Source: Erysipelotrichaceae bacterium
GTDB lineage: Bacteria > Bacillota_I > Bacilli_A > Erysipelotrichales > Erysipelotrichaceae
NCBI GenBank assembly: GCA_030604855.1
Contig: JAUVVC010000011.1
Location: forward strand, 1 to 32,000
Reading direction: 5' to 3'
Length of the DNA: 32,000 bases
Below are positions 1 to 9,824 of the stretch, piece after piece. The stretch's first letter is position 1; the number at the start of each line of letters is the position of its first letter. The position numbers and the translations under genes were made by a program. The notes beneath the pieces are model-generated. The model saw nothing but the letters and a program-made list of their open reading frames with translations. It was not told the DNA's origin and made no database searches.

Positions 1-88
1 CTAAAATTCGAACAACACGTGTAACGTTTCCCTCAAGATCGTACAACTTTAATGCTTCACTAATTTCATACTTTGAATATGATGGCAT
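1..88 (-). CDS. Partial ORF (N-terminus only, continues past window start); possibly a helix-turn-helix protein, function unknown
   Basis: ATG at 88-86 is preceded by a GAAAGGA Shine-Dalgarno (complement of about 94-100). It translates MPSYSKYEISEALKLYDLEGNVTRVVRIL... and is still open at position 1. Only 29 codons are visible, and the HTH idea rests on that short pattern alone. Confidence 0.3.
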   Translation of the reverse strand, partial: MPSYSKYEISEALKLYDLEGNVTRVVRIL

Positions 89-172
89 ACTTTTCCTTTC
101 TGAGTCCAACTTTATGTCCGCATGCCCCTCTCTACTTATAGTCAATAAATATAAGTAAGAAAAGAGGAAAAT

Positions 173-601
173 ATGAAAAAATTGATAGTTATAATGCTTA
201 GTATTTTATTATTTTTTGCAGGTTGTAAGTCATCTGGATTTATCGAAGTAGATACGAAAACAGTTAACGACAGATTGGAAAATAGTGATACCTTTATACT
301 ATATATGGGATTATCGTATTGTTCAGCGTGCAAAATATTCCGCTCTGTAGTTAAGAGTTCTATTGAAAAGGAGAACTTTGATGTATTTTATTTAGAATTT
401 GATAAAGTCCCAGAAAAAGATCAAGAACTTCTAACGACAACTATAACAAGTTTTCTAGAACAAAATGAAACTTTTCCTTATTCATTTCCAATACTATTTG
501 TAATAAAAGACGGAGTAATTCTTGATCAGTTTTCCCTTCAACAAGCAGATACTGAAGACAAATTTATTAAAAGAATTAATAATTCTGGTATTTTTGAATA
601 A
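173..601 (+). CDS. Thioredoxin-fold CxxC lipoprotein
   Basis: Lipoprotein signal MKKLIVIMLSILLFFAGC (lipobox FAGC), with an AGAGGA SD upstream. Thioredoxin-like layout: strand FILYMG followed by C-S-A-C, then later FPILFVIKDG (cis-Pro region). The substrate cannot be inferred. Confidence 0.6.
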   Translation: MKKLIVIMLSILLFFAGCKSSGFIEVDTKTVNDRLENSDTFILYMGLSYCSACKIFRSVVKSSIEKENFDVFYLEFDKVPEKDQELLTTTITSFLEQNETFPYSFPILFVIKDGVILDQFSLQQADTEDKFIKRINNSGIFE

Positions 602-630
602 GAACATTTATTTGGATTAATAAGTAAATA

Positions 631-675
631 AAACGGAATTATAAAATCAATTAGATTTATAATTCCGTTTTTATA
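631..675. terminator. Bidirectional rho-independent terminator between the convergent thioredoxin-like gene and cadA
   Basis: A 15-bp stem, aaacggaattataaa (631-645) pairing with tttataattccgttt (656-670), with a 10-nt loop. T-rich tracts follow the stem on both strands. Confidence 0.6.
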
Positions 676-862
676 AGGATAGGCACACATTCATGAACTA
701 TATCAGAATTTTGTGTATTTATAATCAAATTAACATTTTTGAAAATTAATCCATTGTATGTGCATTTAAGATTTAATCATTCAACTAAAAGGAAACAGAT
801 GTTTAAACTCAACTAGACTCTTAATACACTCTATCTATTATTACTCAATAGATTGGTATGAC

Positions 863-3247
863 TTACAAATCACGCGTATTCATAACTCTTAAAGCATTGA
901 ATACAGCTAACAACGCAACACCTGTATCAGCAAATACCGCTTCCCACATGGTAGCTAGTCCTAGTGAACCTAAAACTAAGAATATACCTTTTACAACCAT
1001 AGCTAATGCAATATTCTGAAATACAATTTTTCTTGTTTTCTTTGCAACTCTAATCGCTGTAATAATTTTAGTTGGTTCATCTGTCATTATCACAACATCC
1101 GCTGCTTCAATTGCTGCATCTGATCCAAGCCCACCCATTGCAATACCAATGTTTGCTCGAGCTAATACAGGCGCATCATTAATTCCATCTCCAACAAAGA
1201 CAATATTACCCTTTGTTGTTTTCTGTTTTTCGATTTCTTCGAATTTAGTAATTTTGTCCGTCGGCAACAACTCAGAATAAACCTCATCCAAGCCAAGATA
1301 ATTACCAATTTCTTCGCCAACTACTTTTCTATCGCCAGTAAGCATTATGGTTCTCATAATCCCTAATTTCTTTAAATCTGCAATTGTCTGTTTAGAATCT
1401 GCTTTGACTTCATCTGATACAACGATATAGCCAATATATTTTGAATCACTAGCTACATATACAATACTTCCATTCGCACTAATTTCTTCGAAAGGAATAT
1501 TCTCTTTTATCATTAATTTCGAATTCCCAACATAAACATTTATATTATCAATTTTTAAATTTATTCCGTAACCTGAAATTTCTTTATAGTCACTAATTCT
1601 ATCTAAATCTATTGTCTTAGAATATTTATTCAGAATAGCTTTAGCTATTGGATGATTAGAGTGATTTTCCGCATACGCCGCAAGTTCTAATACATTCTCT
1701 GTGTTATATCCTTCTTCCGAATTAATATTTGTGACAGTAAATATACCTTTGGTTAAAGTACCTGTTTTATCAAAAATAACCATCTCTATATTATTTAATG
1801 CTTCAAGATAATTACTACCTTTTATAAGTATTCCACGTCTTGAAGCTCCTCCTATACCACCAAAGAAACCGAGTGGTATCGATATAACTAATGCACAAGG
1901 ACAAGAAATAACTAAGAATACTAATGCTCTATAAATCCATTCATTGAAACTTTGATTTGGCATTAATAATGGCGGAAGAATTGCTAATGCTAATGCTAGA
2001 AAAACAACAATTGGTGTATACACAGCTGCAAACTTAGATATAAACTTCTCGGTTGGCGCTTTTCTGCTACTCGCATTTTCAACCAATTCAAGTATTTTCG
2101 ACACTGTAGAATCTTCAAAAGATTTAGTTACTTTGATTAAAATTAGTCCATTGAGATTTATAAAACCACTTATAGCTTGATCATCAACAAACAATTCTCT
2201 TGGAACTGATTCACCTGTTAATGCAGCAGTATCAACCATAGATGAACCTTCAATAACAACCCCATCCAACGGTACTTTTTCACCAGGATTTACAATGATA
2301 ACATCTCCAATTTTAACGCTTTCTGGCTTAACTTTAACTATTTCATTGTTTATTCTAATGTTAGCGTAATCAGGGCGTATATCCATCATCTTTCTTATTG
2401 ATCTTCTTGAATTATCAACCGCTATATCTTGAAATAATTCACCAACCAAGTAGAATAACATAACTGCAACACCTTCTGGATATTCACCGATGAAGAATGC
2501 TCCAATTGTTGCAATACTCATCAAAAAATTTTCACTAAAGACTTGCCCACTTCGAATACCCTTTAATGCCTTTAAAACGATATCGCCACCAACAATAATA
2601 TAACTTAATAGAAATATAGCTAATTCAATATTTGATTCAAACTTAAAAATCAATCCTATTGCAAATAATCCACCACCAACAATCAATTTAAATATTTGTT
2701 TATTTAATGAAAAATCATTTTCTTCATCACTTTCATGATCATCATTTTTAACATCATTCGCTAATAAAGTATTCTCTTTGGTATTTGGAAATTTCATTCG
2801 AATATCGGGCTCAATTGTTTTAGAAATACTAAATAGCTTCTCATTCAATTGATTTATATTTATATTTTTGTCAATTTCAACAATCATATTTTGATTCGCA
2901 AAATTAACAGATGCATATTTTACACCTTCAATCTGCGTGATTTTTTTCTCTATTTTGATCGCACAATTAGCACATGATAGTCCTTCAAGTTTAACTTCTT
3001 GTCTAATTACATCATTACTTTTCATTTCCACAACATTAACTTCTGGTTCAATTGATTTAATATATTTCTTAATATTTTCCATTGTACTAACTAAATTTAC
3101 ATCCTCATCATAATCAAATGAAAGTTTTCTATTCACGAAATCAACACTTACATTCGACAAGCCTGGATTTTTTTTAACATATATTTCTATTTTATTGGCG
3201 CAATTCGCACAATCTAATCCTTCTAGAATCACTTTATTATTTTTCAT
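863..3247 (-). CDS. cadA: Cd/Zn/Pb-type P1B heavy-metal-translocating ATPase
   Basis: 794 aa. Two N-terminal HMA domains with CANC motifs (GLDCANCANKIE, GLSCANCAIKIE) and an acidic/His linker (NDDHESDEEND). Membrane CPC motif (SCPCALVIS), DKTGTLT phosphorylation site and GDGINDAP hinge. It lies immediately downstream of a CadC-like repressor gene. Confidence 0.9.
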   Translation of the reverse strand: MKNNKVILEGLDCANCANKIEIYVKKNPGLSNVSVDFVNRKLSFDYDEDVNLVSTMENIKKYIKSIEPEVNVVEMKSNDVIRQEVKLEGLSCANCAIKIEKKITQIEGVKYASVNFANQNMIVEIDKNININQLNEKLFSISKTIEPDIRMKFPNTKENTLLANDVKNDDHESDEENDFSLNKQIFKLIVGGGLFAIGLIFKFESNIELAIFLLSYIIVGGDIVLKALKGIRSGQVFSENFLMSIATIGAFFIGEYPEGVAVMLFYLVGELFQDIAVDNSRRSIRKMMDIRPDYANIRINNEIVKVKPESVKIGDVIIVNPGEKVPLDGVVIEGSSMVDTAALTGESVPRELFVDDQAISGFINLNGLILIKVTKSFEDSTVSKILELVENASSRKAPTEKFISKFAAVYTPIVVFLALALAILPPLLMPNQSFNEWIYRALVFLVISCPCALVISIPLGFFGGIGGASRRGILIKGSNYLEALNNIEMVIFDKTGTLTKGIFTVTNINSEEGYNTENVLELAAYAENHSNHPIAKAILNKYSKTIDLDRISDYKEISGYGINLKIDNINVYVGNSKLMIKENIPFEEISANGSIVYVASDSKYIGYIVVSDEVKADSKQTIADLKKLGIMRTIMLTGDRKVVGEEIGNYLGLDEVYSELLPTDKITKFEEIEKQKTTKGNIVFVGDGINDAPVLARANIGIAMGGLGSDAAIEAADVVIMTDEPTKIITAIRVAKKTRKIVFQNIALAMVVKGIFLVLGSLGLATMWEAVFADTGVALLAVFNALRVMNTRDL

Positions 3248-3260
3248 TTACTTTTCTCTC

Positions 3261-3626
3261 TTATTTTTCTCTAATATGCAAGAATCCTTGACTAAATATA
3301 TCTTTTACATGTTCATCTTTGATTGAATAATAAACAACTTTCCCATCTTTTCTATTCTTCACAAGATTCGATTGTTTCAATAATCTTAATTGATGAGAAA
3401 TAGCTGATTGTGTCATATTTAATAAAGCCGAAATATCACAAACACACATTTCCGACTCATTTAGAGCCCATAAAATTCTCACACGTGTTGAATCTCCAAA
3501 AATCTTAAATAAATCTGCTAAATCAATCAGAGATTCTTCTTCTGGCATTTTGCTCTTAACATTATTTACAACATCTTCATGAATAGTCGTACAATCACAT
3601 TTAGATACTGTTTCTGAATTTTTCAT
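3261..3626 (-). CDS. cadC: ArsR/SmtB-family metalloregulator, CadC-like
   Basis: Winged-HTH core DSTRVRILWAL...TQSAISHQLRLLKQSNLV, plus N-terminal C-D-C and CVCD thiolate motifs as in CadC. The preferred start is ATG 3626 (MKNSETV...), which has AAAGGGGA 5 nt upstream. The longer ORF reaching 3665 has no SD. Confidence 0.85.
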   Translation of the reverse strand: MKNSETVSKCDCTTIHEDVVNNVKSKMPEEESLIDLADLFKIFGDSTRVRILWALNESEMCVCDISALLNMTQSAISHQLRLLKQSNLVKNRKDGKVVYYSIKDEHVKDIFSQGFLHIREK

Positions 3627-3770
3627 TTTATTCCCCTTTAGATGAACGTTTGAACATCTATTCATATATTAAATCTTTTTTAGTGATTTTTCAAGTATAA
3701 TAATTTATATTTATGTAAAGATTAATGCTAATATTTAGATTATTCTATTCGCGTAATTAAATTACTATTA

Positions 3771-3817
3771 AAAAACCGCTTTTCAGCGGCTAGTTCACCA
3801 AATTGGTGGAAGTGAGG
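3771..3817. repeat. Orphan copy (att-like) of the ssrA 3' end (14 nt) plus ssrA terminator (33 nt)
   Basis: aaaaaccgcttttcagcggCtagttcaccaaattggtggaagtgagg matches 6630-6676 at 46 of 47 positions; the only difference is C3790 versus T6649. Sequence beyond 3817 diverges from tmRNA. Confidence 0.9.
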
Positions 3818-4134
3818 CGTGGCACTTTTATCACTTGTTAAAAATTATATAAATATTATATTTGCTTTTAAAATTTTATTCTTTCAAATTTTTACTACAA
3901 GTTTAGTATATATATAAAAACAATAATAGATATTAAATTATGAGTCAAATATGCGGATGTTTTCTTAAACATTTCAGTATTTCTGTTTAAAATCTATCTT
4001 AATTTATAATAAATATAAATAGTATAAGTTGTTATTAAACTATATTAAATATATATTATAAACAGATTGAAGGTGAAATCATTTCATTCCTAGTAATCAA
4101 TTAATATAATAATATTGCACAAGGGAGGTATCCA

Positions 4135-4539
4135 ATGTTAACAATAAATGAACTTTCAAAATCAACTAATACAAATTCTGAGACTATAAGGTATTATGAA
4201 AAAATAGGGATTATTCCAAAACCAAAACTACTAGAAAACGGGTATAGATCTTATGATAATGAATATATTATTAAAATAAAGTTTATTATAAAGGCTAAAA
4301 AACTTGGGTTTACTTTGCGAGAAATCAAAGAGCTTTTTTCTAACGCGCTTGATCCTGTTAAAACTTGTAATAATATTTCTGATATTGCCTTAGCTAAAAT
4401 CGAACAAATAGAACATCAAATCTATGAATTAAGTAAGATGAAAGAACTACTTTATTCTGTTTCAATAGAATGTAATCCTTCATATTCTATAGAGGAATGC
4501 CCAATCATGAACAACTTGATGAAAAATAAAGAAGATTAA
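4135..4539 (+). CDS. merR: Hg(II)-responsive MerR-family transcriptional regulator
   Basis: N-terminal MerR HTH (LTINELSKSTNTNSETIRYYEKIGII) followed by a coiled coil. Cysteines sit at residues 78, 113 and 122. The spacing of 35 and 9 is the same as the Hg-ligand cysteines of characterised MerR (82/117/126 in Tn501). GGGAGG SD. Confidence 0.85.
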   Translation: MLTINELSKSTNTNSETIRYYEKIGIIPKPKLLENGYRSYDNEYIIKIKFIIKAKKLGFTLREIKELFSNALDPVKTCNNISDIALAKIEQIEHQIYELSKMKELLYSVSIECNPSYSIEECPIMNNLMKNKED

Positions 4540-4540
4540 C

Positions 4541-4572
4541 TTGACATTGGAGTATAGTACAGGGTTTACACT
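4541..4572 (+). promoter_or_regulatory. Candidate MerR-type promoter with over-long spacer (TTGACA-N19/20-TTACAC/TACACT)
   Basis: TTGACA at 4541-4546 starts 2 nt after the merR stop. TACACT lies at 4567-4572 (20-bp spacer), or TTACAC at 4566-4571 (19 bp). The spacer contains GTACAG, which resembles the GTACGG half-site of the Tn501 mer operator as I recall it. Confidence 0.35.
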
Positions 4573-4596
4573 TAATAAGTGTAAACCCTGTACTAT
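4554..4596. repeat. Perfect 43-bp palindrome between merR and merA
   Basis: atagtacagggtttacactta (4554-4574), a (4575), taagtgtaaaccctgtactat (4576-4596). The arms are exact reverse complements. No T-tract follows on either strand. Confidence 0.9.
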
Positions 4597-4781
4597 TAAA
4601 TACGTATAAGCAGATTTTAATAGAATACCTCATTACATGTTTTTACAATTACATTTATTTTAGGTGTTCATGCAATTTATTGGGAATAAGTAATAATACA
4701 AAATCTTAAAGAAATAACTTCTGATTAAAAGGACGAAGCATACAAATCTTACAGGATAAAATAACAAAGGAGAAATTATAT

Positions 4782-6434
4782 ATGAGAAAGTTTATATCCA
4801 AAATTGAAGGAATGACATGTAAATCGTGTGAGTTTCATGTCGCAAAAGCATTAGAAAAGGCAAATTTTAAAAGTATAAATATTGATTATCAAAGTGGTGC
4901 AGCATGGTTTGAGATATCAGATGAGGTTGAATTAGAATCAATTTATGACGCATTAGAAGCAACACCCTATAAATTTTCCGAAGTTAATGAAATACCAAAA
5001 GAAAAAGAGTTTATTCAAGAGCTTCTAGATACTAGCAACTTTGATTTTGATATTTTATTGATTGGTTCAGGGAGCGCAGCATTCTCGGCTGCTATAAAAG
5101 CATCAGAATATGGCGTTAGAATTGGAATGATTGAGAAAGGCGTTGTTGGTGGAACTTGCGTTAATATAGGTTGCATACCTTCTAAGGTACTAATTAAAGC
5201 AGGAGAATTAAATAGATCTGCTATTCAAAATCCATTTGAAGGTCTGGAAACATCAGCTAGTCTACCAAATTTAACAAAGTTAGTACATCAGAAAGATCTA
5301 TTAGTGGAAAAATTGAGAAGCGATAAGTATATTGATTTAATCAGTACTTATAATATCAAACTCATCAAAGGTGAAGCAAGATTTATAAATGAGAATGAGA
5401 TTGAAGTGAATGGAAATAAATATAAATCTAAGCGATTTTTAATTGCAACCGGTGCATCCCCATTTATTCCAACAATAAAAGGGTTAGACAACGTAGATTA
5501 TTTAACTAGTACATCAATATTAGACCTTAAGGAAATACCTAAACGATTAACTATAATAGGTTCAGGATTTATTGCTTTGGAATTAGGAACTCTTTTTAAC
5601 AACTTGGGAAGTGAAGTGACTATAATCCAAAGAAGTGATCGTCTATTAAAAACTTATGATACAGAAATATCAAGTTCCGTAGAACTTGCGCTTTCAGCAC
5701 AAGGAATTAAGTTTATAAAAGGAGTTGAATATGAAAACATAGAACAAATTAAAGACATAAGGAAGGTATATATAACTGTTGATGGCCAGCACATAGTTGT
5801 GGATAGTGATGAACTGCTCATTGCGGCAGGGAGAAAAGCAAACACAGAGTTGTTGAACTTAGAAGCAGCTCATGTCGAAGTTGGCTTAAGTGGTGAAGTT
5901 ATAATAGATGCATATTGTCAAACTAGCAATCCAAGAATATATGCTGCTGGTGATGTGACAGATGGACCACAATATGTTTATGTAGCTGGATATGAAGGTG
6001 GAGTAGCTGTAGAAAATGCTATTGGGAATAAGCAAAAGAAAATAAATTTAACTGTTGTGCCAAGCGTAATTTTCACGAGTCCATCTATTGCTTCTGTTGG
6101 ATTGACTGAAAGTCAAGCAATTGTAAAAGGGTATATGGTAAAAGTTTCGATTCTTCATTTAGATGCAGTTCCAAGAGCTTTGGTTAATTTTAACACATAC
6201 GGTGTGATTAAATTAGTTGTAGATGAACCTTCACAAAAGATTTTAGGCGTTCATATAGTTTCGGATCAAGCGGGAGAATTAATCTATTCTGCCACATTAG
6301 CTATAAAATTTGGGTTAACAATTACAGATTTAACAGATACTATTGCACCTTATTTGACTATGGCTGAAGGTTTAAAGTTAGCCGCGCTTTCATTTAATAA
6401 AGATGTTTCAAAGTTGTCATGTTGTGCAAATTAA
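4782..6434 (+). CDS. merA: Mercuric reductase with one N-terminal HMA (NmerA) domain
   Basis: 550 aa. GMTCKSCEFHV HMA motif, FAD-binding GSGSAAFSAA, redox-active disulfide GGTCVNIGCIPSK and a C-terminal vicinal cysteine pair (LSCCAN). AAGGAG SD. Confidence 0.95.
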   Translation: MRKFISKIEGMTCKSCEFHVAKALEKANFKSINIDYQSGAAWFEISDEVELESIYDALEATPYKFSEVNEIPKEKEFIQELLDTSNFDFDILLIGSGSAAFSAAIKASEYGVRIGMIEKGVVGGTCVNIGCIPSKVLIKAGELNRSAIQNPFEGLETSASLPNLTKLVHQKDLLVEKLRSDKYIDLISTYNIKLIKGEARFINENEIEVNGNKYKSKRFLIATGASPFIPTIKGLDNVDYLTSTSILDLKEIPKRLTIIGSGFIALELGTLFNNLGSEVTIIQRSDRLLKTYDTEISSSVELALSAQGIKFIKGVEYENIEQIKDIRKVYITVDGQHIVVDSDELLIAAGRKANTELLNLEAAHVEVGLSGEVIIDAYCQTSNPRIYAAGDVTDGPQYVYVAGYEGGVAVENAIGNKQKKINLTVVPSVIFTSPSIASVGLTESQAIVKGYMVKVSILHLDAVPRALVNFNTYGVIKLVVDEPSQKILGVHIVSDQAGELIYSATLAIKFGLTITDLTDTIAPYLTMAEGLKLAALSFNKDVSKLSCCAN

Positions 6435-6625
6435 GGTTAAGTATTCATTATATATAGAAGTGAACTATATATACATAACAAGATATAACGTACTAATTTA
6501 ACATAATCTTCCCTACCATATTACTTTGAATATTAATCAAAAGATTAATGAATTGGTTTAGAATCTACTTTGATTTTACGAGAATTAATAAGGAGTATTA
6601 GAACATAGTAGCTGATTCTATAGAC

Positions 6626-6650
6626 AAACAAAAACCGCTTTTCAGCGGTT
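6626..6650 (-). terminator. ssrA rho-independent terminator
   Basis: Minus strand reads AACCGCT-GAAA-AGCGGTT followed by TTTGTTTG, beginning 12 nt after the tmRNA CCA end. Confidence 0.8.
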
Positions 6651-6676
6651 AGTTCACCAAATTGGTGGAAGTGAGG
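6630..6676. repeat. att-like copy contiguous with intact ssrA (last 14 nt of tmRNA plus 33 nt downstream)
   Basis: Partner of 3771-3817, matching at 46 of 47 positions. Positions 6663-6676 are the tmRNA 3' end (CCTCACTTCCACCA on the minus strand). Confidence 0.9.
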
Positions 6677-7006
6677 GGAGTCGAACCCCTGTCCAAATTG
6701 TGTCCACATTCAAACGTCTACAGTTTAGTCTGAATTGATAATCATGCAAGTTGCCTCAGACAAGCCTTACATGATGTGTTCAACTGGATTTAACATGACT
6801 TTGATTGAACATCTGATCATGCGATTCCTTGTTTATGGTGCCAAGCTCAACCCCAAGGACAGGGTCAAGGTGACAGCTACGAGCCTTTAGTGGCTAACTA
6901 TGCAGCGAAACTTAATTTGTTTCCGGTTATTGTTTTTTGGCAATTAGGTCGCCACTCCACTGCAGTCTGAATCCAACAGTCAATCTGTCGAAACCATGAC
7001 ACCCCC
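6663..7006 (-). ncRNA. ssrA: tmRNA (SsrA), about 344 nt
   Basis: The 5' end is GGGGGUGUCAUGGUUUCGACAG. The 3' end is GGACAGGGGUUCGACUCCCCUCACUUCCACCA, with T-loop UUCGACU and an encoded CCA. The acceptor stem pairs GGGGGUG with CACUUCC and includes a G3:U pair. An internal tag frame ends ...GGA AAC AAA UUA AGU UUC GCU GCA UAG (GNKLSFAA stop). Confidence 0.95.
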
Positions 7007-7027
7007 ATGTGGGATGGATGCATTGAA

Positions 7028-7056
7028 AGTATATGACTTTTATTACAACTTGTCAA
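7028..7056 (-). promoter_or_regulatory. ssrA sigma-A-type promoter
   Basis: Minus strand has TTGACA (7056-7051), a 17-bp spacer and TATACT (7033-7028). This predicts a short leader of about 15 nt ahead of the mature 5' end at 7006. Confidence 0.7.
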
Positions 7057-7063
7057 TCAAAGT

Positions 7064-7087
7064 AAATCCCGATGTTAGTCGGGATTT
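7064..7087 (-). terminator. Hairpin at the end of the phn/EIIB operon (possible terminator)
   Basis: aaatcccga (7064-7072) pairs with tcgggattt (7079-7087). The loop contains the EIIB stop codon (7075-7077). On the minus strand the trailing tract is only moderately U-rich (ACUUUGAUU). Confidence 0.4.
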
Positions 7088-7383
7088 TTTGCTTTATTCA
7101 AGGTATCCAAAGCTAAATCCAAAACCGCTTCACCGTTCATCGTTCCATAGTTGTTCATATCGATGAACGCATAGGGAATCTTGACTTCCTTGGCATAGAT
7201 TTTGTGTAGATAACGCACTTGAGGTGCGATAAGTAAGACGTCCGCACCTTCTAATCTTTGAAATGAACGAGAGCCATAAGCATCAATCGAACAATCCAAA
7301 TCACGCTTTTTAGCGGCTTCCCGCATCTTTGTCATCAGTAAACTGCTGGATAAGCCCCCAGCACAAAACATGACGATCCTCAT
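7075..7383 (-). CDS. PTS EIIB domain protein, lactose/cellobiose family (orphan; no EIIC/EIIA in window)
   Basis: 102 aa. MRIVMFCAGGLSSSLLMTKMR...ADVLLIAPQV...YGTMNG matches the phosphocysteine loop and overall pattern of ChbB-type EIIB (E. coli ChbB ...FCSAGMSTSLLVSKMR...ADVVLLGPQI...). Its ATG overlaps the upstream phnE stop (ATGA, 7380-7383). Confidence 0.85.
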   Translation of the reverse strand: MRIVMFCAGGLSSSLLMTKMREAAKKRDLDCSIDAYGSRSFQRLEGADVLLIAPQVRYLHKIYAKEVKIPYAFIDMNNYGTMNGEAVLDLALDTLNKAKNPD

Positions 7384-8192
7384 GCGAGCTTCTTACGTAA
7401 CTGAGTTGAAATGGCCTCAACAATCAAGACAAAGATGATCAAGCCGACTAGTAATGCGCCGGCATCTTTCCATCGATAAGCATTGATCGCAAAGATCAAC
7501 GGAGCACCAATACCACCTGCCCCGACCATTCCTAAGATGGTGGCATACTTGACATTGATTTCAAAACGATAAATGGCTGTAGAAAGGAAATTACTTAGAA
7601 GTTGTGGAATGATGCCATATTGAATCTTCTGGATACGATCACAACCCGCCGCATCCAAGGCTTCAATGATGCCTGGGTCCAGTTCTTCAATGATTTCGAT
7701 ATAGAGTTTGGAAATCATTCCCACACTCGCAATCGCCAAGGTCAATACACCCGTGAAGGCACCAGGGCCCGTAACACGAATGAACATCAAACCATAGACA
7801 ACCGCTGGGAAGGTACGGATGACAGTAATGATCGCAACACCAATGTGTGCGACCCATGAAGGAACGACATTTCTAGAAGACAAAAAGGCCATTGGAATGG
7901 AAATGATCGCCCCTACGATTGTGCCTAGAAATGCGATCGCGGCCGTTTCCAACAAGAGATATGGAACGCCACCTTTCGTTGAAAAATTAAGTAGGAATTC
8001 TAGATTCGGTGTAAAGATGCTTTGGATGATCGCACCTGCGATATCCACACCGGTTTCGGTCAACCCCTTGATTTCGACATACTGCGTAGACAGAAATAGA
8101 ATCAAGAGATTAAGTACGATGATGGCTGTGTTCTTAAGCAACACCTTTGGCTGCTTACTCAATTGTTCATTGACACGTGAATTTAAACTCAT
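7380..8192 (-). CDS. phnE: Phosphonate-type ABC transporter permease
   Basis: 270 aa, polytopic. PhnE-type EAA region EALDAAGCDRIQKIQYGIIPQLL...YRFEINVKYATILGMVGAGGIG. ATGA overlap with the preceding permease gene at 8189-8192. Confidence 0.85.
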   Translation of the reverse strand: MSLNSRVNEQLSKQPKVLLKNTAIIVLNLLILFLSTQYVEIKGLTETGVDIAGAIIQSIFTPNLEFLLNFSTKGGVPYLLLETAAIAFLGTIVGAIISIPMAFLSSRNVVPSWVAHIGVAIITVIRTFPAVVYGLMFIRVTGPGAFTGVLTLAIASVGMISKLYIEIIEELDPGIIEALDAAGCDRIQKIQYGIIPQLLSNFLSTAIYRFEINVKYATILGMVGAGGIGAPLIFAINAYRWKDAGALLVGLIIFVLIVEAISTQLRKKLA

Positions 8193-9010
8193 AATAATTT
8201 CTTCCTTATCGTACGACTCAAACTCTCAATCATATATACGGTAATCATCATGACCAACAAAATCAAACCCACATCTGGGTAGACACGCCAACCCAAACGC
8301 TCATTGAGAATCAAACCGATTCCCCCAGCGCCGACATAACCCAAGATAGCCGCATTACGAATGTTCATTTCGAAGTTATAAAGAACTAAAGAGAAATATT
8401 GACCCCAAAGTTGTGGCATGATGGCAACCCAGAACGCCTGGATACGACTTGCCCCACTGGACATCAACGCTTCAAAAGGTCCCATATCGGCTGTATCAAT
8501 CAACTCATAAAACATCTTCGTCATGATGGTGAACGTAAAGATTCCTATCGCCATCGTCCCTGCAAAAGCACCGATACCAAAGATGATTCTAAACAACAAG
8601 GCCAATACCAAGATCGGGAAAGTACGGACCACACTTAGAAATGCTTTGGTGATGAACTTTACAAACTTACTCTTCATCATATTCTCAGATGAGATATAGG
8701 CAGCAGGAAGTGCCAACAAGGATCCAATAACGGTCCCTAAGATGGACATCATGATGGTAGCCAACAAGGGTTCCCAAACCTTCTCAAAATACGCGAAATT
8801 CGGTGGAATCATGCCATCCAGAATGACAAAGAACTGATACCCACGTCTAAAGAGCGTAGCCAGTTTAAAGCCCGTCAACTGGATGCTGTAGAGCGTCATG
8901 AACGTCAAAATAGGAACGACATAGATCGCTGGACTCATCTTCGGTTGGATGACCTTCCCATTACTCAAAGTAATGGGTTTCGGTAGAAACAAACGTTTGA
9001 TTCGTTCCAT
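8189..9010 (-). CDS. phnE: Phosphonate-type ABC transporter permease
   Basis: 273 aa, polytopic. EALMSSGASRIQAFWVAIMPQLW...YNFEMNIRNAAILGYVGAGGIG. It starts 1 nt after the phnC stop. Confidence 0.85.
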   Translation of the reverse strand: MERIKRLFLPKPITLSNGKVIQPKMSPAIYVVPILTFMTLYSIQLTGFKLATLFRRGYQFFVILDGMIPPNFAYFEKVWEPLLATIMMSILGTVIGSLLALPAAYISSENMMKSKFVKFITKAFLSVVRTFPILVLALLFRIIFGIGAFAGTMAIGIFTFTIMTKMFYELIDTADMGPFEALMSSGASRIQAFWVAIMPQLWGQYFSLVLYNFEMNIRNAAILGYVGAGGIGLILNERLGWRVYPDVGLILLVMMITVYMIESLSRTIRKKLL

Positions 9011-9011
9011 A

Positions 9012-9776
9012 CTAGTGTTCCATTAATTCATCATCACTGAGTTCACGTCCATAGATCTCTTTCAAGATTTGGTTATTCACTTTCGTGGATGGACCATCAA
9101 AGATGATTTTTCCCTCTTTTATACCAATCACACGTTTCGCAAACTTCAATGCGATATCCACATGGTGCATGTTCGCAATAACGGTGATATTGAGTTCCTT
9201 ATTGATCTTAACAAAATCATTCATCACTTGATTCGAAGTAACAGGATCCAACGACGCGACTGGCTCATCCGCAAGAATGATCTTGGGTTGTTGAGCTAAG
9301 CAACGTGCCAAGGCAACACGCTGTTGTTGGCCACCGGACAATTGATCGGCCCGTGTATACGCCTTCTCCAAAATACCCACCTGGTCCAAGGCTTCCAACG
9401 CAATGATCTTATTCTTCTTGGTATACAAACCCATCAGGCTCATCCACAACGGCATGTCCGCAACACGTGCAGCCAAGACATTCTTGATGACCGATGTTCG
9501 CTTGACAAGGTTGAACGATTGGAAAACCATTCCGATATCGCGACGAAAACGACGCAACTCTTTCCCTTTCAAACTCGACACATCCACACCATTGACCAAC
9601 AGTTTACCCTCGGTAATGGTATGCATTTGATTGATGGATCTTAAAAGTGTGCTTTTACCCGCACCCGATAAACCAATGATGGCCACAAAATCACCTTGTT
9701 CAACTTCTAAACTGACACCCTTCAGTGCTTGTACGCCATTTGGATAGGTCTTAACAACATTCTGAAACTGAATCAT
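9012..9776 (-). CDS. phnC: Phosphonate-type ABC transporter ATP-binding protein
   Basis: Walker A GLSGAGKST, signature LSGGQQQRV, Walker B ILADEP. AAGGAG SD. Operon context with phnD and phnE. Confidence 0.85.
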   Translation of the reverse strand: MIQFQNVVKTYPNGVQALKGVSLEVEQGDFVAIIGLSGAGKSTLLRSINQMHTITEGKLLVNGVDVSSLKGKELRRFRRDIGMVFQSFNLVKRTSVIKNVLAARVADMPLWMSLMGLYTKKNKIIALEALDQVGILEKAYTRADQLSGGQQQRVALARCLAQQPKIILADEPVASLDPVTSNQVMNDFVKINKELNITVIANMHHVDIALKFAKRVIGIKEGKIIFDGPSTKVNNQILKEIYGRELSDDELMEH

Positions 9777-9795
9777 AGTGAGACTCCTTTGATAT

Positions 9796-9824
9796 AAAAA
9801 AGAGAGCGAGGTTTAACCTCGCTC
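9796..9824 (-). terminator. Intercistronic hairpin plus U-tract between phnD and phnC (partial terminator/attenuator)
   Basis: Minus strand reads GAGCGAGG-UUAAA-CCUCGCUC followed by UCUUUUUU, located between the phnD stop (9834) and the phnC SD. Confidence 0.6.

Follow-up and report, generated by a model that had tools for sequence, protein, structure and literature searches.

How does a merR-merA unit that carries no mobility gene of its own come to lie between two copies of the end of the tmRNA gene ssrA? The question arises from a 32-kb stretch of Erysipelotrichaceae DNA (32,000 nt, hereafter the window), in which a repeat search returned a 47-nt direct repeat with copies at 3771-3817 and 6630-6676, 2859 nt apart from start to start and matching at 46 of 47 positions (98% identity; C3790 versus T6649 is the sole mismatch). 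Because this pair is the longest repeat found in the 32-kb window, the match is far beyond chance. ARAGORN and Rfam (138.6 bits, gathering score 47) place a full-length tmRNA gene on the minus strand at 6663-7006, so that the right copy consists of the last 14 nt of the tmRNA and the 33 nt downstream; past 3817 the left copy continues as CGTGGCAC..., which is no longer tmRNA. Intrinsic terminators are present on the minus strand in both copies (stems 3791-3774 and 6650-6633), and the genes beside ssrA are PTS IIB, phnE/C/D and 5'-nucleotidase. An earlier note on this DNA had described 47-nt repeats bracketing merR and merA, the right copy joined to a complete tmRNA gene and the left one an orphan, and both statements were borne out. 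Its repeat length holds for the core, but the true unit is longer, as orphan copies carry an additional 26-nt arm (3818-3843). The features of the locus are:

1-132, minus strand: terminal part of an IS3-family element that sits within the cadA cassette (departure from all other cadA-cassette contigs)
133-3770: right-hand 3.6 kb of the cadA cassette (ORFs, Pfam, NCBIfam, matching contigs)
173-601, plus strand: PedC-like, inside the cadA cassette
863-3247, minus strand: cadA P-type ATPase, inside the cadA cassette
3261-3665, minus strand: ArsR/CadC-type regulator, inside the cadA cassette
3771-3817: orphan att copy, read as attL core, with ssrA-terminator copy (stem 3774-3791), dyad CACCAAATTGGTG and, at 3804-3817, the final 14 nt of the tmRNA repeated
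3813-3815: putative crossover TGA of the left copy (TCA when read on the tmRNA strand), from polymorphism linkage, an island-borne 2-nt variant and half-site register
3818-3843, plus strand: conserved 26-nt arm CGTGGCACTTTTATCACTTGTTAAAA, putative P' half-site, after every orphan att copy in all arrays
3818-6629, plus strand: body of the mer cassette (2859-bp unit in six independent contigs)
4135-4539, plus strand: merR-family metal-responsive regulator (Pfam MerR_1 and MerR-DNA-bind)
4554-4596: inverted repeat with 15-bp stem directly past merR (self-match 4596-4554)
4782-6434, plus strand: merA, mercury(II) reductase (TIGR02053, Pfam, translation)
6630-6676: tmRNA-linked att copy, read as attB, with the terminator side as B and the tmRNA end leading into B'
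6663-7006, minus strand: intact tmRNA gene (ssrA), tag GNKLSFAA (ARAGORN, Rfam)
6672-6674: putative crossover TGA in the right copy, from the same linkage, variant and register as in the left copy

Regarding the content of the mer cassette, MerA scores above the TIGR02053 equivalog cut-off (581 versus 454 bits) and shows an N-terminal HMA domain, a CVNIGC active site and a C-terminal CC. MerR remains under the cut-off of the NCBIfam MerR model TIGR02051 (105 versus 151 bits), with the CadR, CueR and ZntR models scoring alike, and its translation contains three cysteines with the expected spacing. MerT/MerP (or MerC/E/F) are absent, there being no further ORF of ≥40 aa inside the cassette; the sole other ORF of this size touching the cassette arms (6545-6709, minus strand) runs through the repeat into the tmRNA gene and is most likely spurious. 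In agreement with the earlier description of a cassette coding for merR and merA only, the ORF list, Pfam and NCBIfam yielded no recombinase or transfer gene in 3818-6629, and no IS element lies within 3771-6676.

The cadC-cadA block to the left of mer is a second cassette of the same type. Its complete form of 5086 bp is att-flanked in other contigs (e.g. L002), where at least 8 different neighbours follow it across contigs. The first 129 nt of the window are 96% identical to L103 and 90% to L105, in both cases adjoining a 471-aa HTH_Tnp_1/rve transposase. In the public assembly collection, 813 indexed blocks contain exactly this CadC protein. A walk to the left of the window with the PedC-like protein led to one 3.7-kb contig only, and no record was found for a 102-aa PTS IIB call. 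A plasmid database contained no match to the mer cassette and only distant ATPase matches to the cadA cassette.

We found that gain, loss and reshuffling affect whole cassettes with exact boundaries, and that cassettes cross species. Contigs differ in whether they carry the mer cassette and in what adjoins it: L061 shows the exact mer-free junction, with cadA cassette, att and then tmRNA, and in L004 the 2859-bp mer cassette adjoins another cassette placed between mer and the next att. The mer cassettes at ssrA in L065 and L063 match that of the window with 99.93% identity, in hosts that differ from that of the window (tmRNA 92% and flank ~75% identical for L065, tmRNA 97.7% and flank ~85% for L063). 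At the att site identity falls sharply to the host level, even inside the tmRNA gene (99.9% versus 92%), which shows that the exchanged segment ends at the site and not in flanking homology. The proposals that the unit had integrated site-specifically at the ssrA 3' end and that it is an att-flanked, non-autonomous cargo formed by accretion are thus supported by the cassette-free junction, the other neighbour in L004, the nearly identical cassette in a host with 92% tmRNA identity and the att-flanked cadC-cadA block. A 2.86-kb circle, which the earlier note had proposed to look for, was not seen, as the right end of the mer cassette was never joined to its left end (attP junction) among assembled contigs. 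Two Logan contigs of ~2.85 kb (L005, L006) were considered as circles and proved to be repeat-bounded assembly fragments.

Further copies of the repeat are abundant: related metagenome and MAG contigs contained 61 distinct att copies, 53 of them orphans, and the 26-nt arm CGTGGCACTTTTATCACTTGGTAAAA stands after every orphan repeat. Cassettes are bounded by the ssrA-terminator copy on the tmRNA side and, on the far side, by the 26-nt arm joined to a repeat of the final 14 tmRNA nucleotides. We distinguished 26 complete cassette types ranging from 853 to 9821 bp (median 1.7 kb), which carry metal resistance, defence and toxin-antitoxin genes and in no case a recombinase gene. Two tandem cassettes (mer, cadA) are present in the window and up to at least 8 in related contigs, with contig Ga0209207_1000177 containing at least 8 orphans plus the tmRNA copy. 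Arrays of small recombinase-less cassettes at the tmRNA end are widespread in Erysipelotrichaceae. An empty attB with native downstream genes was not found among the contigs, and candidate flanks for the distal chromosomal side showed no shared synteny.

Which enzyme could serve these sites? ORFs of ≥80 aa from 38 loci were grouped into 136 families and screened for tyrosine and serine recombinase motifs, and families of ≥140 aa, membrane and ABC proteins left out, were additionally read by eye. Within the arrays of these 38 loci, motifs and reading gave no recombinase and only transposases (IS21, IS256, IS1182-like, IS1595, IS3); Pfam tables of the array contigs likewise contained no recombinase. 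The only match to the motifs, a 215-aa protein, is not a recombinase.

The best candidate is a large serine recombinase (LSR) rather than the tyrosine integrase one would assume. In sister lineages (L067-L077, L086-L090, L098-L100) a 522-527-aa LSR with Resolvase, Recombinase and Zn_ribbon_recom domains immediately adjoins the tmRNA end, a position seen for four sequence types and in hosts of differing relatedness, and its ORF, on the opposite strand, overlaps the tmRNA gene by 76 nt. The nearest NCBIfam model is CcrB with 165 bits against a cut-off of 900, so the protein is not a Ccr; its best solved relatives are SPbeta YokA and the TP901-1 integrase. Neighbours of the LSR gene are an S24-like 421-aa protein and 54-, 167- and 625-aa ORFs without Pfam match, but neither a second Resolvase-domain gene nor homologues of DsiA, ParB or Mom. 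On the LSR islands no conjugation genes were seen and no recombination directionality factor was identified. The LSR gene is missing from the window, and none was seen in the eight own-species contigs that reach the tmRNA. The earlier proposal of a recombinase encoded elsewhere, possibly left of the window, is supported as to its place outside the window; where the candidate is seen, it lies at the right, tmRNA-proximal end of the array and not at the distal left one. In L093 an orphan att is located distal to the LSR island, with an IS256 in between, while in L067, L074, L086, L090, L091 and L098 the contigs do not reach the distal attL of the island.

The arm of the cassettes and that of the LSR islands form a dyad. 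Around TCA the cassette arm matches the island arm of the P0022/P0024 type in exact register at 14/15 positions (positions 8-22); the match falls to 11/15 with the L067 type and 10/15 with the L090 type, and the two attB halves reach 8/15 and 3/15. In 1.58 Mb searched, the 12-mer TTTTATCACTTG occurs only in orphan arms and at the LSR junction of the P0024 type (L086-L089). Terminator variants co-travel with one neighbouring cassette, the arm and the last GG with the other, and the positions GCGG[TT/TC/CT]AG vary independently of either neighbour. A 2-nt variant, CCTCA[TC]TCCACCA, is found only where the islands compared above abut the tmRNA, whatever the host. Variant linkage, the island-borne 2-nt variant and the half-site register suggest that the crossover takes place at the TCA located 9-12 nt ahead of the 3' terminus of the tmRNA. 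Judged from the sequences, the tmRNA-linked copy may be assigned as attB (B'+B), the orphans as attL (P'+B) and the junction between tmRNA and LSR island as attR (B'+P), and the predicted attP is CAAGTGATAAAAA-TGGTGGAGATGAGG-CGTGGCACTTTTATCACTTGG. A crossover at the centre of the dyad CACCAAaTTGGTG, the exact tmRNA terminus, was dropped because the half-sites are in register only around TCA and the island-borne TC variant lies 3' of the crossover.

We consider it fairly likely that merR-merA is a cis-mobilizable cassette, that it belongs to a tandem array built at the ssrA 3' end and that its sites are served by an ssrA-specific LSR, and the mer cassette was probably moved by an LSR encoded on a separate island. 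On excision, an LSR island at the tmRNA could take any number of downstream cassettes with it (attR x distal attL), and the resulting circle with its one attP would integrate at attB in a new cell; the island might later leave alone (attR x nearest attL), which would restore attB and let the cassettes stay. The window would represent the state after the island had left, with attB, mer cassette, attL and cadA cassette in this order. By analogy, the excision logic would be as proposed for Dehalococcoides ssrA-GIs and ccr-less SCC elements. To our knowledge canonical LSRs do not recombine attL with attB, so single cassettes would be mobile only in cis, unless the enzyme is permissive like Ccr. 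The first formation of a unit (terminator copy, cargo, arm) lies outside the LSR model and is unexplained by it. A bolder reading, possible but in our view doubtful, regards the ssrA end as the serine-recombinase counterpart of an integron, where a trans-acting LSR would insert promoter-independent cassettes down to 0.85 kb. It would require an LSR that joins single-cassette circles (attL-type site) to attB, unlike canonical LSRs. If true, each cassette would bring a fresh ssrA terminator, regenerating attB and letting arrays grow without limit, and metal-resistance, toxin-antitoxin and defence cassettes would pass from genus to genus in the communities of wastewater and gut.

Identity blocks as long as 47 nt are more usual with tyrosine integrases, which speaks against an LSR. 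A tyrosine integrase encoded at the distal array end, in a prophage or in the core genome could recombine the 47-nt core with the cassettes as its satellites; long identity blocks that restore a tRNA or tmRNA 3' end are its hallmark (PMC4383910). The L062 prophage, which had no match among phage records in megablast, adjoins the cadA cassette at this very site and brings a separate arm, ...GGAAGTGA followed by ACCATAC. The prophage arm is, however, unlike the cassette arm, which is in dyad register with the arm of the serine-recombinase island, and together with the absence of tyrosine recombinases from ~0.8 Mb of array DNA and from the DNA adjoining ssrA, and of the att from the viral contigs scanned, this makes a tyrosine integrase unlikely. 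It also seems improbable that no dedicated recombinase acts today, with cassettes lost by RecA-dependent deletion between the 47-73-nt repeats and acquired when incoming array DNA recombines homologously. In favour of this, the repeats are long and close to identical, deletion between them gives exactly the L061-type junction, the GCGG[TT/TC/CT]AG variation looks as if produced by gene conversion, and repeats, neighbouring cassettes or ssrA could serve as homology arms. On the other hand, conservation of the 26-nt arm in ~50 cassettes that have nothing else in common speaks for selection on a protein-binding site; the exchanged segment ends at the att and not in flanking homology, and the origin of new units is left without explanation.

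Placement of the merRA block by IS- or plasmid-mediated transposition, with incidental flanking repeats, is very unlikely. The inner 2.56 kb of the mer cassette (4068/4074-6628) does occur att-free at 99.9% identity between IS3-family and IS1595-family elements (L103, L105) and beside Rep3/RepB genes (L104, L106). At ssrA, though, the unit is bounded by att sites and not by IS ends, contains no IS in the window and has a constant length of 2859 bp in six contigs. The copies in IS contexts are without the 250-nt left arm and stop 1 nt short of the att, and so appear to have been captured secondarily from an array. The chance that segmental duplication or faulty assembly produced the repeat is negligible, since the same structure is found in independent assemblies from ENA, JGI, NCBI and Logan and the repeat separates dozens of unrelated cassettes.

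The array type itself is already described from Dehalococcoides ssrA islands and staphylococcal SCC elements, the former being the closest precedent for the LSR-served array favoured here. Dehalococcoides ssrA-GIs use a CcrB-family recombinase, its gene located at the ssrA-proximal edge with an ORF across the att site, and form tandem islands; about half are devoid of any integration module, and for these cis-mobilization through accretion was proposed (2011, PMC3146451). The module comprises DsiB, DsiA, RecF-like, ParB-like and Mom-like proteins, a 700-aa protein and an embedded tRNA-like locus (PMC3146451). Both systems share tandem units and the ssrA 3' end as target with a direct repeat of that end, and the sister-lineage loci alone also share the serine recombinase at the ssrA-proximal edge overlapping the att. 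In contrast to Dehalococcoides, the host is a member of the Bacillota (Erysipelotrichaceae), the repeat comprises 47 nt including the terminator plus the 26-nt arm instead of 20 bp, and the cassettes are much smaller and almost all without recombinase. The six-gene module was not found, its place being taken by the LSR and its neighbours described above, and metal resistance, defence and toxin-antitoxin genes replace the reductive dehalogenase cargo.

SCC composite islands likewise combine a serine recombinase with the 3' end of a conserved single-copy gene and consist of tandem units with direct repeats beside terminal inverted repeats; some units for metal or drug resistance lack the recombinase (ccr-less pseudo-SCC, e.g. 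SCCHg). The type of the candidate recombinase, with CcrB as nearest model, the tandem array and recombinase-less metal-resistance units are shared, whereas the target is ssrA instead of the rlmH (orfX) 3' end and a single recombinase gene far below the CcrB cut-off replaces the ccrAB pair. CIMEs of streptococci are att-flanked, accreted with ICEs or IMEs and devoid of recombination and transfer genes. The cassettes resemble them in these absences and in att sites like those of an integrase-bearing element at the same locus, but described CIMEs depend on ICE tyrosine integrases and occur as single units, while here arrays reach 8 or more units and the probable partner is a serine-recombinase island. 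Integrons, including sedentary chromosomal integrons and CALINs, are also arrays of small cassettes. Common to both are small, mostly single-function cassettes, a conserved ~75-nt repeat, an insertion point regenerated beside a fixed chromosomal site and arrays that are mostly seen with no integrase next to them. Neither an IntI tyrosine recombinase nor attI/Pc is present here, the repeat, conserved in sequence, combines terminator, tmRNA end and arm and does not look like an attC folded from single strands, cassettes often bring their own regulator (e.g. merR), and the proposed chemistry would be double-strand serine recombination. Unlike an Islander-class island, neither the window nor the related arrays have a tyrosine integrase beside the intact target.

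Mercury and cadmium resistance has thus spread between Erysipelotrichaceae sharing ~75% nucleotide identity in neighbouring core genes, carried by units of 3-5 kb without mobility genes of their own. With the LSR reading, the paradigm of ssrA islands and SCC, in which a serine recombinase acts at a single-copy essential gene and passengers lack a recombinase, would reach a third phylum and include integron-like cassettes of much smaller size. The reading also provides testable att sequences for an LSR family whose attB is natural and highly conserved, possibly of use in genome engineering. Short-read assemblies break at each repeat, so that such arrays are systematically under-reported in MAGs and sometimes mis-binned; two of the array contigs had been placed in Bacteroidales and Muribaculaceae bins.

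A 47-nt block occurs twice in the window as direct repeats (3771-3817 and 6630-6676), 2859 nt apart and identical at 46 of 47 positions. ARAGORN and Rfam agree on a single intact minus-strand tmRNA gene (6663-7006), so the right copy is made up of the tmRNA's final 14 nt and the 33 nt that follow. Each copy has a hairpin and a T-run, which score as an intrinsic terminator on the tmRNA strand. Between them lie genes for a MerR-family regulator and for MerA, which passes the curated mercury(II) reductase model; ORFs, domain models and curated models gave no recombinase in this interval. The earlier note, which had described this repeat at the end of an intact tmRNA gene and a merR-merA content without a recombinase, is thus borne out on both points. 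G+C content ranges between 0.21 and 0.37 over positions 1 to about 6600 and between 0.41 and 0.48 right of ssrA, a step indicating that all window DNA left of tmRNA is foreign and not the mer block alone. The sole mismatch between the two copies falls on one of the variable positions of GCGG[CT/TT]AG (3790-3791 and 6649-6650), which read TT, TC or CT across contigs independently of both adjoining cassettes; gene conversion between copies or a mutational hot spot could account for this variation. A perfect inverted repeat with a 15-bp stem (4554-4596, GTACAGGGTTTACAC ... GTGTAAACCCTGTAC), located 15 nt past the merR stop and 185 nt ahead of merA, could be an operator or a terminator.

Related loci, denoted by L numbers, were gathered via contigs encoding identical MerA, CadC or MerR and by two collection scans with att patterns, which yielded about 70 informative loci in Erysipelotrichaceae MAGs and in metagenomes of sewage, digesters and gut. 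The mer block is a member of a cassette array. A third att copy, which the earlier note had suggested looking for in relatives, is present in contig L002 to the left of the cadC-cadA genes, which makes the window's left neighbour another att-flanked cassette, with a complete length of 5086 bp. In all, 61 distinct att copies were distinguished, of which 53 are orphans. Every orphan is directly followed by the 26 nt CGTGGCACTTTTATCACTTGGTAAAA (window 3818-3843), whereas the tmRNA-linked copy runs on into the tmRNA body. The 26 distinct complete cassette types range from 853 to 9821 bp (median 1.7 kb), and on one 47-kb contig (L029 and L042) at least eight orphans accompany the tmRNA copy. Among the varied cargo are aldo-keto reductases with a MerR regulator, a recurrent single-gene RhuM/Fic cassette, ABC transporters, AbiEi/AbiEii, AAA_14/DUF4143 proteins, P-type ATPases, LysR with MatE, and macro-domain proteins. 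No tyrosine or serine recombinase is encoded in any array cassette, the sole mobility genes being secondary IS insertions. The exact sequence of the CadC/ArsR-type protein (window 3261-3665, 134 aa) is indexed in 813 blocks of a public assembly collection, so this cadA cassette is very widespread. Two array contigs filed in Bacteroidales and Muribaculaceae MAGs (L011, L012) have a G+C content of 0.25-0.27 and Erysipelotrichaceae-type att sites and are probably mis-binned.

Six independent contigs agree on a mer cassette length of 2859 bp. In L061 a single att site links the cadA cassette straight to tmRNA, which equals the window minus exactly the mer unit and represents the cassette-free ssrA junction that had been proposed as a check in relatives. 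L058 and L060 have two other cassettes separating the cadA cassette from tmRNA, mer is followed by a different cassette in L004, and the cadA cassette's right end meets at least eight different neighbours across the contigs, one of them a prophage. Identity in L065 and L063 is 99.93% for the mer cassette (2 mismatches in 2812 nt), against 92.2% and 97.7% for the tmRNA and about 75% and 85% for the adjacent core genes, respectively; the cadA cassette is 99.2-99.5% identical in hosts with flanks 73-75% identical. Such cassettes might be exchanged by site-specific recombination or within long homologous segments; the identity step is located at the att site, inside the tmRNA gene, which argues for site-specific exchange. 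Given the exact units, the arrangements in L061 and L004 and this identity step, the original interpretation of an att-flanked, non-autonomous module is essentially right and the mer cassette finding is real.

Through homologues of the PTS IIB gene beside ssrA we reached contigs of a sister species in which a 522-aa protein with Resolvase, Recombinase and Zn_ribbon_recom domains, a candidate large serine recombinase (LSR), is encoded directly at the tmRNA 3' end. Representative coordinates are:

L099, 1494-3062: LSR gene (L099 copy)
L067, 10645-12213: LSR ORF
L067, 10378-10720: tmRNA gene, strand opposite to the LSR ORF

The LSR ORF faces tmRNA and overlaps its gene by 76 nt on the opposite strand (L067, also L086, L090 and L099), with its last 25 codons read from the antisense of the tmRNA gene; the LSR C-terminus would therefore change upon excision. 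The same peculiarity has been reported for Dehalococcoides dsiB (PMC3146451). LSR relatives of 64-69% identity hold the same position at the tmRNA end in three more host backgrounds. The nearest curated family is CcrB, with a score far under the cut-off, and among solved relatives the SPbeta YokA (SprA) and TP901-1 integrases rank best. The LSR types P0022 and P0024 are 89% identical although their hosts' tmRNAs differ by 73 more positions, and the LSR islands are therefore horizontally mobile too. They also encode an S24-like 421-aa protein and small ORFs (54 and 167 aa among LSR neighbours), the gene adjoining the LSR showing a weak match to S24 (LexA-like) peptidase, and L067-type islands additionally carry a type I restriction-modification system. 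Within the same samples the tmRNA end is taken up either by the LSR island or by cassettes (L070 versus L084, ERZ27315071), and samples with both states include ERZ27315071, ERZ27315067 and SRR943324-6.

Searching both strands of 1.58 Mb, we found the 12-mer TTTTATCACTTG 53 times in orphan arms and elsewhere only right after the tmRNA terminus at P0024-type LSR junctions (L086-L089), where it is inverted. The tmRNA end CCTCA[TC]TCCACCA occurs only where P0022- or P0024-type islands abut (L086, L098, L099). All other tmRNAs end in CCTCACTTCCACCA, including those of L017, the sister host of L099, and of L090, whose host is as far from the window as that of L086. This restriction to island-abutted tmRNAs indicates that the bases are island-borne, with the crossover located 5' of them. 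In the set of 53 orphans, variants of the terminator loop are linked to the cassette on one side, and the last GG of the 47-mer plus the arm to the cassette on the opposite side. Shared motif, island-borne variant and polymorphism linkage are three independent observations that fit one model, in which the crossover would be TGA (window 3813-3815 and 6672-6674). Outward from TGA, cassette arm and island arm agree at 14 of 15 positions (positions 8-22, CA.TTTTATCACTTG) with zero shift; the match to the cassette arm is 11/15 for the L067 type and 10/15 for the L090 type, and 8/15 and 3/15 for the two attB halves. The arms would represent the imperfect dyad expected of an LSR attP roughly 50 bp long. 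The tmRNA-linked array copy would then be attB, each orphan attL and the LSR junction attR. The predicted island attP junction is ...CAAGTGATAAAAA TGGTGGAGATGAGG CGTGGCACTTTTATCACTTGG... and that of a mer-cassette circle ...TCTATAGACAAACAAAAACCGC...GAAGTGAGGCGTGGCACTTTTATCACTTGTTAAAAATTA. A degenerate orphan att is located distal to the LSR island in L093, with IS256 in between.

We infer a mechanism in which an LSR island at tmRNA would excise with any downstream attL and carry the intervening cassettes along. After integration elsewhere the island would exit via the nearest attL, restoring attB and leaving the cassettes stranded. In this way each cassette would be left with a terminator copy on the side towards tmRNA and with the arm at its opposite end, the arrangement found in the linkage analysis. 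The window itself has no LSR, the contigs showed neither an island attL nor an attP junction nor a cassette circle, and no recombination directionality factor was recognised. Canonical LSRs are not known to join the circle of a single cassette with attB, and the model gives no account of the formation of new cassette units.

By the respective membership tests the mer/cadA array is neither an integron nor an SCC element nor a tyrosine-integrase island. The closest precedent is found in the Dehalococcoides ssrA-GIs, islands arranged in tandem and delimited by a 20-bp repeat of the ssrA end. Of 31 such islands, 16 carry the CcrB-family recombinase DsiB (ACZ62382) at the ssrA-proximal edge, its ORF overlapping the att site; the 15 others lack an integration module, and accretion has been proposed to make them cis-mobilizable (PMC3146451). 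The same reasoning applies to SCC composite islands with ccr-less units and to streptococcal CIMEs. The Erysipelotrichaceae arrays differ in host phylum, in their longer repeat plus arm, in the integration module, in their very small, integron-like cassettes and in the near-absence of the recombinase from sampled arrays. The kind of system is a known one, that of ssrA-specific serine-recombinase islands with recombinase-less passengers, and what is new is its unusually compact, widespread form.

Some array ends deviate. L057 (GCA_040373375.1, 771-kb contig) carries an array with three orphan att copies at 1-9822 and has no Rfam tmRNA match within 9.8 kb on the proximal side, so that either a very large cassette intervenes or the array is separated from ssrA. 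In L059 the proximal end is occupied by a group II intron (3873-5660; RVT_1 ORF, matches to Rfam D1-D4 and domain V/VI models), beyond which G+C jumps to 0.46-0.56 and no tmRNA follows. In L019 (oriented, 3770) and L024 (2264) the att terminator half joins unrelated DNA exactly at the tmRNA terminus (GTTCACCAAA|ATTATTGAAC), adjoining a 139-aa ORF, a type of junction not accounted for by the TGA-crossover model.

Other mobile DNA was found at or within the cassettes, and the inner 2.56 kb of the mer cassette, the merR-merA core (window 4068/4074-6628), recurs outside ssrA arrays at 99.9% identity:

window, 1-132: end of an IS3-family element, with a minus-strand ORF from near 88 that runs off the window
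L103 and L105: merR-merA core between IS3-family and IS1595-family elements
L104 and L106: merR-merA core beside Rep3/RepB genes

No att sites are present in the L103-L106 contexts, where the core ends one base short of the att repeat at an IS1595 inverted repeat (GGTGTTACTCAAC...). The L104/L106 context is a putative small replicon; PLSDB plasmids gave no match for the mer or the cadA cassette. The IS3 end in the window is 96% identical to L103 301-429 and 90% to L105 1496-1624, stretches that adjoin a 471-aa HTH_Tnp_1/rve transposase; the element of L103/L105 is the one ending at about 132 inside the cadA cassette, where it replaces a stretch that elsewhere encodes a 395-aa thioredoxin-like membrane protein. 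A prophage (L062 1-9850; tail, LysM and SocA genes) occupies the same ssrA site adjoining the cadA cassette, with an arm that differs from the cassette arm (GGAAGTGA|ACCATACATTTTTATACC). In one sewage contig (L001 220-2764) the mer cassette's non-coding left arm is interrupted by an IS21 element (istA/istB), at window position ~4055-4059.
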